Shown here: one piece after another, positions 33,601 to 35,863 of the stretch
Layout: each line of letters opens with the position of its first letter
How positions within the stretch are numbered: position 1 is the first letter of the stretch
DNA from: a virus
Taxonomy: Duplodnaviria > Heunggongvirae > Uroviricota > Caudoviricetes
Virus record (IMG/VR): IMGVR_UViG_2879742664_000009
DNA: 40,938 bases
Reading direction: 5' to 3' (one strand)
Program-made: the position numbers and the translations under genes
Notes under the pieces: model-generated
What the model saw: only the letters and a program-made list of their open reading frames with translations
Told to the model about the DNA's origin: nothing
The model's database searches: none

Positions 33601-33629
33601 GCAAAGAGATTATACACACAAAAGCAAAA

Positions 33630-34421
33630 TCAATAAGTGCCCTTCTTATTCGGATTCACAGAGTACTTCCGTAAAGCATTACCCGACTTAAGCACCTTTG
33701 AAGCTTGCTCATTAGCTGAGGCTGTGAAGGTGCTCTCACCATTTTTAACGCTAACGCTCTTAGAGCACGTTACACGGGCTTTTAGCGCTTCATCTGATAA
33801 CTCACTTGCCGAATAGCTAAAAAGCTCTTTACAGGTCAGCATAGGGCTTCCAAGGCTCGTTGTAGTGTTGCCAGTATTCTTTTTACTGGTAGCACCACCA
33901 TCATTCGTGGTAGCAGTCTTGCCAGTTGCAGCCGAAATATCAGTCTGACCCACAATAGCTTTGAAGTTAATTTCCTGAAAAGTTAGCTGGATTCTTAGAC
34001 CATTTGAAATACCAACATCTTTAGAGGCTTTAAAGCTCGTGATAATGGAATCATCAATTTTAATTCCGTCTTTACAGATGACCGAAATAATCTGCTTCTG
34101 GTCACGCCAGTTTTCCAGAGTGTCGATGAAGTTCTCCACCAGCTTAGTATCTCGTGAGATAAGGATACTACCGGATTCACCAACTACAACGACACCACTA
34201 ATAGTGATTGTTCTGGGTGCTCTTTGCACATTATCTGTGACGGTTTGCCCTGATTGCATGTTCTGTGTAGTCACCTGCATAGGGCTGTCAAATTCCATGT
34301 TTTCAGTTGCTGATAAGGTTAAGAAGGCATCTACATTATCTCTTAAGTGGAAGTAAACGCCATCTTTGCCAGTGTAACGAAGTTGATTAGAGTAAAACAT
34401 TAAATTCTCCTTTGATTTCAA
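33630..34421 (-). CDS. hypothetical protein, possibly phage distal tail protein (Dit-like); low GC
   Basis: 263-aa ORF immediately downstream of a tape-measure-like gene; AT-rich codon usage; no confident family match from sequence alone. Confidence 0.35.
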
Positions 34422-34490
34422 AGGCTTAGTGTATTTTAATCATTTTTAACCAAACCTTTGATATATAAGTATTTTCTCTGTTAAGCGTGA

Positions 34491-34545
34491 GCTACGTGAA
34501 AAATAATTTTTGGTGTGGGTATTAACTTTGCTTTATTCACGTAGC
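34491..34545. repeat. 10-bp perfect inverted repeat (GCTACGTGAA ... TTCACGTAGC) with 35-bp spacer
   Basis: Read directly from the sequence, in the 136-bp gap between the two low-GC genes. Confidence 0.6.
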
Positions 34546-34557
34546 ATTCGACTATTA

Positions 34558-35863
34558 TTAATCATCTTCTGGGAATGATGAACTTAATAGCGTAGCTTCT
34601 GCATATTGGTCGTAGATATTACTGCTAAAGGTCATAAAGCTGGTTTCATCTGGTTTAATGGCAACTTCACCACCAAGTGAAACTTTCACAGGCTCCTGAA
34701 TACGTTTGCTCAAAGCGGAGATTTCATCTCTCAGGCTTTGGATATCTGCACTCGTTAATGCTGAATCTTGCTTAATGTTGTTTAATTCTGGATGCTGGAA
34801 GTTAGCAAGATTCATAGCAGCACTATTAAACCACCCTTTAACATCATCCATAGTGAAAGCGGGTTTAAGTCCAGACTCTTTAGCCAGCTCTGGTAATTTA
34901 GCTTGTGCTTCCATTCGTTCAGGTGTAGAAGCTAATCTTTCATAACCTGCATAGATAGCACTACCAGCTAATAGCATCTTCATAGGGTTTAGTCTTGATG
35001 GTTTCCCATTCTTTCTATTCACGTTATCCGCTGTAGTATCAGCTACCTGACCTAATCTTGTGATAGCAGTCATAAGCCCGTAAATACTTCTGGTTACACC
35101 AACAACTTTATTCACAGCAATAACACCAGCCAAGACTTTTAAACTATTAATCAAGCCAGAACCTAAAGCATCAACAACTTTCTTTTGTTCATCGGTTAAA
35201 CCACGATAAGCTAATGTCACCTCATCAAAGAATGCTCTCACTCTGTAACTGATATCGGTCAGGCTATCCACACCACTTGACATAGAAGTCATCAAGCTAC
35301 CAAGAGATTCACCAAGACTCTTACCACTTCCACCTAAACTGTTTAAAAGCGTTGTTAGGCTTCGTGTAAAATCTTGCAGACCATTTTCAGAACCTCTGAA
35401 GATACTATCAAGCGTGGTATTCCAAGAGTTTTTCAGGTTCCCCAGTTGTGCTTGTGTGCTTTCTGAAATAGCTTTCCAGCCACCTTTAGCTGTGATTTGT
35501 TTATTCAGTTCCTGAGTGACCTTCTGAAGAGTATCGGCAGATTTTAAAGCCCCCTTCTTCATGGCATCAAATAATTCCTGTTCACTCTTTCCGGTTGCTT
35601 TAGCGAATACCTGAACCATACCAGGAACAGCTTCAGCTAGTTGCCCCTTAAGCTCTTCAGCCATAATCTGACCCTTACCAGCCATCTGTGATAATGCTGT
35701 CAGTGCTCGCTTAATCTCTTCCTCACTTCGACCCATTAAACGAGAATAGCCAATCATATTTCTAAAAAGCTCTTCAGAACCTTGAATACCCATAGACTCT
35801 TTAGCTGAAGCACCAAAACCAGCAAACTGTGATTGCAGTTCAGCGATATCTAAACCCGTTGTT
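34558..35863 (-). pseudogene. tape-measure-like protein fragment (low GC), 5' truncated by IS911
   Basis: Tape-measure N-terminal-type motif (RSEEEIKRALTALSQMAGKGQIMAEELKGQLAEAVPGMVQVF). The first 9 codons of the track ORF (GTG at 35889) come from the IS911 end. Confidence 0.6.

Follow-up and report, generated by a model that had tools for sequence, protein, structure and literature searches.

What are two AT-rich genes of phage-tail character doing next to dinB, the gene of an SOS polymerase? The question is raised by positions 33,601 to 35,863 of the IMG/VR record IMGVR_UViG_2879742664_000009, a stretch of 40,938 nucleotides classified under Caudoviricetes; this whole stretch is here called the window. 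Two open reading frames (ORFs) occupy its minus strand, 33630-34421 and 34558-35889, flanked by dinB (32519-33583) and by a cluster of insertion sequences (IS). An earlier note, made from the letters of the DNA without database searches, had seen in them an AT-rich orphan pair, unlike the core genes and a GC-rich prophage in composition, and had proposed a separate acquisition at the place where K-12 has lafU. Much of this can be upheld. The GC content is 40.4% in 33584-35863, against 54.2% in dinB, 55.8% in the Mu-like prophage (17.5-29.9 kb) and 51.3% in the window as a whole. In E. coli with an empty site, lafU indeed lies directly upstream of dinB, and the GC contrast together with an island junction (see below) speaks for a separate low-GC acquisition at the lafU/dinB site. 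Orphans, however, the genes are not: they have intact relatives in a family of chromosomal islands and homologues in Felixounavirus phages.

The answer that emerges from the alignments is that 33563-35863, which has 40% GC and contains two genes on the minus strand with a conserved spacer of 157 nt between them, forms the terminal 2.3 kb of an integrative island of ~11.5 kb. The overall explanation, which combines this identification with the proposal that the intact islands live as satellites of virulent phages, we regard as on balance probable. Our confidence in its two parts differs: it is high for the identification and moderate for the satellite lifestyle.

The smaller of the two genes is intact. 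Its start was put at ATG 34400, because a Shine-Dalgarno (SD) sequence, AAGGAG at 34407-34412, precedes this conserved codon and because the resulting 256 residues are the length found in nearly all of the 120 closest homologues listed (a few have 254-264); the ORF call of 263 residues begins at an upstream TTG. The gene thus extends from 33630 to 34400 on the minus strand. The earlier note had called its product Dit-like by position only and had otherwise left it without a confident assignment. The Dit-like fold is now borne out by PF21821 (Dit_like), matched over residues 37-153 with 71.4 bits against a gathering cut-off of 24.2 (E 1e-19), and the assignment can be made. The protein matches phrog_3721 (E 1.5e-131) and PDB chain 9NDY_A, the ‘Tube initiator protein gp018’ of Escherichia phage Bas63 (E 7.6e-120), residues 5-256 of the query lying on residues 7-265 of the chain. 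This solved homologue, Bas63 gp18, is ~95% identical, with near-identity over residues 5-200. By these sequence matches the 256-residue protein is securely identified as a tail tube initiator, and the family it belongs to is a tail-related one. The exact protein is recorded from Shigella flexneri. In Bas63, gp18 is a hexamer that sits on the hub and adapts its threefold symmetry to the sixfold tail; it combines a tube-like fold with a C-terminal extension of ~100 residues that passes through the baseplate (PMC12609058).

The larger ORF is what is left of a tape measure protein (TMP) gene. The fragment (34558-35863, minus strand) comprises the C-terminal 434 codons of a 682-residue protein; it is colinear with the intact 682-residue TMP genes of two E. 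coli loci (L001 and L003) up to position 35866, at 93-95% nucleotide identity, and matches PF20155 (TMP_3) with 67.1 bits against a cut-off of 41 (E 2.2e-18). The earlier reading of a tape-measure fragment cut by IS911 was therefore correct, one end of IS911 lying at 35864. The 443 codons that had been counted do form an ORF, but nine of them, the first ones including the GTG, belong to the IS911 end. Nor does the piece carry a tape-measure N-terminus, as had been thought. It represents the C-terminal two thirds; ‘N-terminal’ occurs only in the name of TIGR02675, a motif that in the intact homologue (55 bits against 21) is found mid-protein. Some 247 N-terminal codons and the promoter are gone, and a complete TMP reading frame is not found in the window, its N-terminus being missing and the GTG start lying within IS911. 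Having lost its N-terminus to IS911 and a rearrangement, the gene is a pseudogene. The intact homologue matches PDB 9NDY_F, the TMP gp017 of Bas63 (E 5.6e-69), and the fragment has kept a phage-like C-terminal motif, LLSSSFPEDD. In Bas63 the last 25 residues of the TMP lie against the hub and against PA, the protein of the head-distal baseplate tip (PMC12609058). The identities of the two genes are in a sense already known: PGAP names the pair ‘tape measure protein’ and ‘phage baseplate protein’.

The truncation itself is easily read. IS911 (35864-38426, plus strand) is annotated with 99.7% identity to ‘IS3-like element IS911 family transposase’; its end TGAAGTGGCAC begins at 35864, and it is split by a second IS3-family element at ~36103-37415. 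It is flanked by GTT and CAT, without a target-site duplication. Its far flank is an unrelated prohead-protease fragment, and no other island piece was found within the window. The differing flanks, the unrelated far flank and the lack of further island pieces imply an IS-mediated rearrangement that removed the rest of the island. As judged from these ends, it took with it the N-terminus of the TMP, the backbone and the recombinase; the lafU side, and with it the native promoter of dinB, went as well. The island in the window is a dead remnant that can no longer move. Its one gene that could still be expressed in this Shigella flexneri window is that of the initiator, for which no promoter of its own can be recognised. 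Locally, we are dealing with ordinary decay in an IS-eroded Shigella genome.

As to the opposite end of the remnant, the earlier note placed the gene pair upstream of dinB and overlooked that the insertion lies inside dinB itself. We aligned the junction in the window with that of avian pathogenic E. coli (APEC) O18, where the site is occupied, and with two empty-site genomes. The latter read ...GAGGTGAGTAATGCGTAAAATC-AT-TCATGTGGATATGGAC, with lafU upstream. On its lafU side, APEC O18 keeps the native promoter, the LexA box and ATGCGTAAAATCAT, and continues into island DNA just upstream of the recombinase gene; on its dinB side it reads ...TGTATAATCTCTTTGCATGTATAAATATACAGGGTGTATAAGAAAGTGAAGATT-AT-TCATGTGG, and there the window is identical. 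Since the window thus has the occupied junction of APEC O18, the crossover is assigned to the common AT at 33561-33562, within dinB codons 4-5, in a recombination junction of the P-B' type (33553-33571, minus strand). The reconstructed attP, GAAAGTGAAGATT-AT-GATTTTCACTTCC, is an imperfect palindrome (by eye from the alignments), as expected of a serine recombinase. On this evidence, a large serine recombinase put the island into the AT of dinB codons 4-5. Homology to E. coli ends at window positions 33562-33568 in 5417 genomes, and the dinB-linked junction is present in 8 of the 5426 complete E. coli genomes; the region is not a common conserved locus.

In consequence of the crossover, dinB has a hybrid 5' end (32519-33571, minus strand). 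It is native from TCATGTGG (33560) on, and its start region stems from the island. The terminal 67 nt of the island (33563-33629, minus strand), which match the occupied APEC O18 junction letter for letter and bear no relation to the promoter that dinB has natively, now serve as the dinB upstream region. They contain a TATAAT (33609-33614) and, at 33585-33600, the palindrome CTGTATATTTATACAT (plus strand), which matches 15 of the 16 core positions of CTGT-N8-ACAG and is, by sequence, a candidate LexA box; its first half-site reads ACAT, not ACAG. According to the aligned junctions, the island end supplies dinB with a possible start codon, the TATAAT and the LexA-box-like palindrome, and the frame is preserved from codon 5 on. 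A possible start is GTG 33571-33569, from which the protein would read M-K-I-I-H versus the native M-R-K-I-I-H. Starting at the next ATG would drop Asp8, presumably a catalytic residue of DinB. The new upstream region lacks a -35 element, and by eye only weak ribosome-binding sequences precede the candidate GTG starts. Integration in dinB with replacement of the promoter is unusual. In the intact APEC O18 copy (L004), the native LexA-controlled dinB promoter and the first four codons lie at 31616-31760, ~85 nt upstream of the recombinase gene; a short ORF, MRKIMIFTS plus stop codon, ends just before that gene, and the island's own promoter, TTTTCA-17-TATAAT, straddles the att arm. With the native dinB promoter so close to the recombinase gene, SOS induction could read into the recombinase. 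Downstream of dinB, yafP follows directly (32070-32522) without the yafN-yafO toxin-antitoxin pair, as in E. coli O121 (L008), and beyond yafP lies an IS-cut N-terminal fragment of an RtcB-family ligase gene (31588-31851, minus strand).

The intact parent element, which the earlier note recommended looking for, does exist. Rather than an ordinary prophage, it is an island of 10.5-12 kb (~11.5 kb) with 39% GC, equipped with a serine recombinase but lacking head genes. Six complete E. coli copies have the same gene order: recombinase, initiator, TMP, a 67-residue gene, a 236-residue gene and several small unassigned genes. To these come cargo genes that vary (HNH nuclease, Dam methylase, small invertase) and ~2 kb without ORFs. 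Six IMG/VR loci, one Citrobacter locus and one metagenome contig share this synteny. The complete copies are found at four sites, inside yecE, at wrbA-ymdF, at tonB-yciI and in dinB, and the recombinases at different sites are only ~38% identical to one another. The recombinase of the intact relatives, whose att junctions could be aligned, has Resolvase, Recombinase and Zn_ribbon_recom domains; it is the gene that the window has lost.

The rest of the backbone is largely mute. In the intact copies, i.e., the six complete E. coli ones and the other loci, Pfam and PHROGs reveal no family of capsid or head, portal, terminase, sheath, tube or lysis proteins, and the backbone proteins yield only HNH, recombinase and weak helix-turn-helix matches in Pfam, PHROGs and NCBIfam. 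Sequence searches of the PDB with the 67-, 185- and 236-residue island proteins came back empty, PADLOC recognised 0 families among nine island proteins, and an AlphaFold2 model of the conserved 185-residue backbone protein, built on a shallow alignment of 13 sequences, reached a pLDDT of 39.7. A second backbone type contains a 326-residue protein that matches phage replication-initiator PHROGs (E 2e-8).

The family is widespread. Of the 5426 complete E. coli genomes, 455 contain its backbone, 259 of them at a coverage of 80% or more, always in the chromosome and never on a plasmid, which amounts to a prevalence of ~5-8%. Records of one backbone protein come from E. coli, Salmonella enterica, Citrobacter and S. 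sonnei, in whose records (clusters of at least 1000 contigs) the family is very frequent; a scan of species-representative genomes yielded two loci only. In Citrobacter sp. ANG330 (L018, 6917-8928) the island TMP gene is split by an insertion of ~2 kb. The ORF-poor region of ~2 kb (L004, 27066-29105, with equivalents in L001, L003 and L015) is 75-86% conserved among islands. It displays divergent strong promoter-like sites (27117-27182), a conserved small ORF for a membrane-like protein of 70 residues (27274-27486) and a 48-nt direct repeat (27607 and 27702). A promoter-like site at 28510-28537 and a terminator-like hairpin near 28700-28745 delimit a possible transcript of ~200 nt, which would hold a GGT-rich patch common with intergenic repeats of Felixounavirus. 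From such features, the region may encode a regulatory RNA or an origin.

Where do the tail genes of the island belong? All their phage matches are to Felixounavirus, a genus of virulent phages of ~88 kb. The GC content of the island (39.2%) is that of phage VpaE1 (38.9%), whereas E. coli core genes have ~51%. In the window, in all island copies and in VpaE1, the initiator gene stands directly downstream of the TMP gene. When the whole 88-kb VpaE1 genome was searched, the initiator proved 75% identical to VpaE1_066 over its full length. In the window copy the identity is unevenly distributed: alignment columns 26-75 and 101-175 are 100% identical, whereas around residues 200-250 it is only ~25%. 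Overall, the initiator is 75-95% identical to its Felixounavirus counterparts, and ~515 bp of its gene are ~91% identical to many Felixounavirus genomes at the nucleotide level. The ratio dN/dS is ~0.15 within the family. For the N-domain of the window copy, dS is 0.40 to the phage versus 0.84 to a sister island, which suggests repeated exchange of the initiator between islands and phages.

The TMP behaves differently. It aligns end to end with the 742-residue phage protein of VpaE1 at 28% identity, with 80% in the first 30 residues and 10-35% in the core, and the C-terminal motif LLSSS[YF]PE[ED][ED] is common to island and phage TMPs. The island TMPs have 679-724 residues and are thus 18-63 shorter than the phage protein. 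Among island members they are 41-80% identical, the initiators 75-84%.

Outside these two genes, the sole phage matches in 50,697 records are short non-coding patches of Felixounavirus. They fall in two ORF-free regions, repeats of ~130 nt next to the ligase gene and a 1.7-kb stretch; the former comprise three tandem GGT-rich units (VpaE1 59.1-59.65 kb, L006), the latter corresponds to L005 13530-15279. Searches of the full VpaE1 genome with the island genes by tblastn, phmmer and blastp disclosed no further protein homologues, the chaperone candidates gp063 and gp064 included.

In the phage, the TMP and initiator genes abut. In the island they are separated by a spacer of 157 nt with 29% GC (34401-34557, minus strand) and two predicted RNA hairpins. 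The gap of 136 bp given earlier is correct if counted from the TTG, but it becomes 157 nt from the conserved ATG 34400. The perfect 10-bp inverted repeat reported at 34491-34500 / 34536-34545 is exact in its coordinates, and it is the stem of the first predicted hairpin, HP1, with a loop of ~35 nt. The second, HP2 (34450-34460 / 34419-34429), lies directly 5' of the SD sequence of the initiator gene and touches the ribosome-binding site. A repeat of equal length turned up in 1.75% of 2000 dinucleotide shuffles of the spacer. The spacer folds with a minimum free energy of -30.3 kcal/mol (z = -3.65). In nine members of the family it has a mean column identity of 93%, although their TMPs are only 41-80% identical, and the inverted repeat is kept in nine out of nine. 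Where only one side of a hairpin is substituted, pairing on the sense (mRNA) strand is kept in every case, by a change of the G-C to G-U or A-U type; in two extension pairs both sides have changed.

The HP1 module, with CTCACGCTTAACAGAG, is repeated directly upstream of the SD sequence of the TMP gene in five of seven members examined, and a degenerate third copy is seen near the recombinase of APEC O18. The module is absent from phage VpaE1. Neither the inverted repeat nor the GTTAAAAAT motif recurs in the phage genome, and a role of either as a phage promoter was therefore rejected. A scan of the spacer found no sigma-70 promoter and no terminator; Rfam, even at a permissive threshold, gave no match in the whole APEC O18 island. 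Taken together, the nine sequences are suggestive of an island-specific control element that acts at the RNA level before each tail gene. The earlier note had thought of operator mapping around the repeat. A DNA operator is not favoured over the RNA reading, since the substitutions are wobble-compatible on the mRNA strand and the module is repeated upstream of the TMP gene.

What might an island without head genes do with two tail proteins? An instructive precedent are the PLEs, serine-recombinase islands of Vibrio cholerae that parasitise the virulent myovirus ICP1 (PMC12987554). A PLE encodes its own TMP, chaperone and hub and builds chimeric tails that are ~10 nm shorter than those of the helper; one variant adds a small protein that blocks the helper TMP (PMC12987554). 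By analogy, the intact enterobacterial family would be a PLE-like satellite of virulent Felixounavirus myophages, a reading to which we give slightly better than even chances. It is favoured by the combination of helper-like docking surfaces with island-specific cores in precisely those proteins that start the tail and set its length. On infection by a Felixounavirus phage, the intact island would excise and replicate. It would use the heads, sheath, tube and baseplate of the phage and substitute its own TMP and tube initiator. For the resulting chimeric tails a length reduced by 3-9 nm is predicted. Docking would fall to the segments kept phage-like, in the initiator its tube-like N-domain and in the TMP the first ~45 residues and the last 10, while discrimination or resistance could come from what is island-specific, namely the core of the TMP and the initiator's distal C-terminal extension.

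Several observations weigh against this satellite reading. No circular, excised or virion-derived copy of the island was found; the candidate contigs of island size hold host flank, and the 11.3-kb metagenome contig retains the wrbA flank. No recognisable packaging signal, small terminase or capsid-size factor is present in the island, and for most backbone proteins Pfam, PHROGs, NCBIfam, PADLOC and the PDB offer no match. The non-coding patches shared with the phage are short, 58-90 nt, and have no annotated function there. The length gap of 18-63 residues between island and phage TMPs is small. Finally, the element in the window is only a fragment, and the whole mechanism cannot operate there.

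Among the alternatives, the one that fares best sees in the intact island a defence island. Its initiator and TMP would be dominant-negative decoys that use their phage-like docking parts to get into Felixounavirus baseplates, then block or spoil the completion of the tails and thereby protect the clone; as a corollary, the intact initiator gene in Shigella flexneri could still protect partially. The phage-like docking segments beside a diverged remainder would fit, and so would the arms-race-like pattern of a fast-evolving TMP (41-80% among members) and a conserved initiator. Interference with tail assembly is a known form of defence, as exemplified by Tai, Tab and Rta (PMC11364771, PMC10884400, PMC12987554), and the initiator ORF has stayed intact in an IS-ridden genome. 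Nevertheless, we consider the decoy function unlikely. PADLOC gave no match, and the inhibitors of tail assembly known so far are not full-length structural homologues but small proteins that are unrelated. The serine recombinase, the at least four att sites and the replication-initiator-like protein in one backbone suggest more than passive defence. Satellites, moreover, usually also interfere with their helper, so that decoy and satellite overlap in part.

Less probable still is that the point of the locus is a regulatory one: the island end would rewire dinB with regard to its SOS promoter and first codons, the hairpins would be remnants of island control, and the tail genes mere passengers. 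The crossover inside dinB codons 4-5, the new upstream region with its TATAAT and the palindrome with 15 of 16 LexA core positions are in line with this idea, and so is the position of the host's own LexA-controlled promoter of dinB in APEC O18, where the intact island has its recombinase gene ~85 nt downstream of it. The missing -35 element, the weak ribosome-binding sequences before the candidate GTG starts and a candidate box that has ACAT for ACAG in its first half-site are not. In essence, rewiring of dinB complements the satellite explanation instead of replacing it.

That the pair is debris of an ordinary decayed temperate Felix-O1-like prophage, with genome decay as its only message, is highly improbable and is rejected on the architecture of the intact copies: the window does contain IS-cut prophage pieces (a TMP fragment at 2758-4014, a prohead protease at 38445-38870 and the Mu-like tail module), and the PGAP labels say no more than ‘tape measure protein’ and ‘phage baseplate protein’, but all intact relatives examined are one att-bounded unit of 10.5-12 kb without head, terminase, sheath, tube or lysis genes, the unit sits at four sites with different recombinases, in hundreds of genomes and under purifying selection, and the Felixounavirus phages are virulent and measure ~88 kb.

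Let us return to the satellite. In its widest form the proposal says that a widespread enterobacterial satellite family parasitises Felixounavirus via chimeric tails and that its dinB subtype also swaps promoters; this has, in our view, not quite an even chance. If it is true, the SOS promoter of the host dinB reads into the recombinase in the dinB subtype, and a LexA-box-like promoter of the island reads into dinB. Chimeric-tail satellites have so far been shown only for the PLEs of Vibrio cholerae; the island family would then be a genetically tractable E. coli counterpart of the PLE-ICP1 pair, for which the BASEL phages and a solved baseplate structure are at hand. Phage therapy and phage typing would be concerned too, given the wide use of Felix-O1-like phages against Salmonella, E. 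coli and Shigella. For the window itself, the island remnant explains the low-GC patch beside dinB in Shigella flexneri. The SOS polymerase gene of this lineage is left with a start codon and a putative promoter of foreign origin, and damage-induced mutagenesis may be altered as a result.

The remainder of the window holds other pieces of note. A tail and baseplate module of a Mu-like myovirus extends from 17100 to 29900 (minus strand, 56% GC) and comprises sheath, minor tail protein/TMP, DNA_circ_N, GpP/gp44 hub and Baseplate_J; an IS3-family element at 29933 marks its end. Beside it, at 15080-16228 (plus strand), lies an acyltransferase gene of the Acyl_transf_3 family in a region of 29-35% GC (15000-16500), which may be the O-antigen-modifying gene of a serotype-converting phage. 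Another TMP fragment (2758-4014, minus strand; PF20155) is 28% identical to the island TMP, unrelated to it, and adjoins an IS3-family element at 4062-4952. At 38445-38870 (plus strand) a prohead serine protease (Peptidase_S78) survives with its C-terminal part, behind which a coiled-coil capsid-like ORF begins; this pair (38445-39200, plus strand), IS-cut at both sides, is one more prophage scrap. The same IS3-family element, which we take to be IS629/IS1203-like, is present in at least five copies in the 41 kb (29933-31146, 36147-37360, 39249-40462, 13326-14216 and 4062-4952). It encodes ORFs of 108 and 296 residues, and one copy is nested in IS911. Last but not least, metG (6721-8763) shares the window with dinB, which points to large IS-driven rearrangements, typical of Shigella.

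How, then, does the island compare with systems already known? The closest relatives of its tail genes are gp18 and gp17 of Bas63 (PDB 9NDY) and their VpaE1 equivalents, VpaE1_066 and VpaE1_065. The window initiator aligns end to end with gp18, the island TMP homologue has the first ~45 and the last 10 residues in common with gp17, and the order, TMP then initiator, is the same. The setting differs: the island genes are chromosomal and part of an 11.5-kb island instead of an 88-kb virulent phage; in the core of the TMP identity drops to 10-35%, and the protein is 18-63 residues shorter; the distal C-terminal extension of the initiator is down to ~25%; and a structured 157-nt spacer replaces the abutting genes of the phage.

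As to its integration, the island resembles the integrative elements that target gene ends and restore the gene, in that it recombines in dinB and supplies a substitute 5' end with start codon and promoter. Here, however, it is the 5' end of an SOS gene that is targeted, and the substitute contains a LexA-box-like palindrome. With the phage-inducible chromosomal islands (PICIs), their capsid-forming variants (cf-PICIs) and P4-like satellites it shares the size range, the site-specific integration into the chromosome and the enterobacterial hosts; some cf-PICIs are even reported to have tmp genes (PMC12987554, Extended Data Fig. 10). The presumed helper of the island, in contrast, is virulent, not temperate, and none of the PICI, cf-PICI or P4 hallmarks (tyrosine integrase, AlpA, primase-replicase, capsid module, Sid, Psu, Delta) was found in either backbone type.

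The likeness to the PLEs (Nature 2026, PMC12987554) goes furthest. Both are small islands with a large serine recombinase, mostly unassigned genes and one virulent myovirus as counterpart, and both have their own TMP, shorter than that of the helper, together with a baseplate-proximal tail protein that has diverged from the helper's. They differ in host and helper genus and in size, ~11.5 kb here against ~18 kb. The second swapped protein is here the tube initiator, not the hub (BhuB) or a chaperone, and it is 75-95% identical to that of the helper, against 20-41% in PLE. The chimeric tails of the PLEs are known from experiment; those of the enterobacterial island are a prediction. The resemblance is one of gene content and architecture, and we do not claim membership in the PLE family. 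In the literature searched, neither a Felixounavirus satellite nor this island family is described; the family would, if the analogy holds, join the satellites that build chimeric tails.

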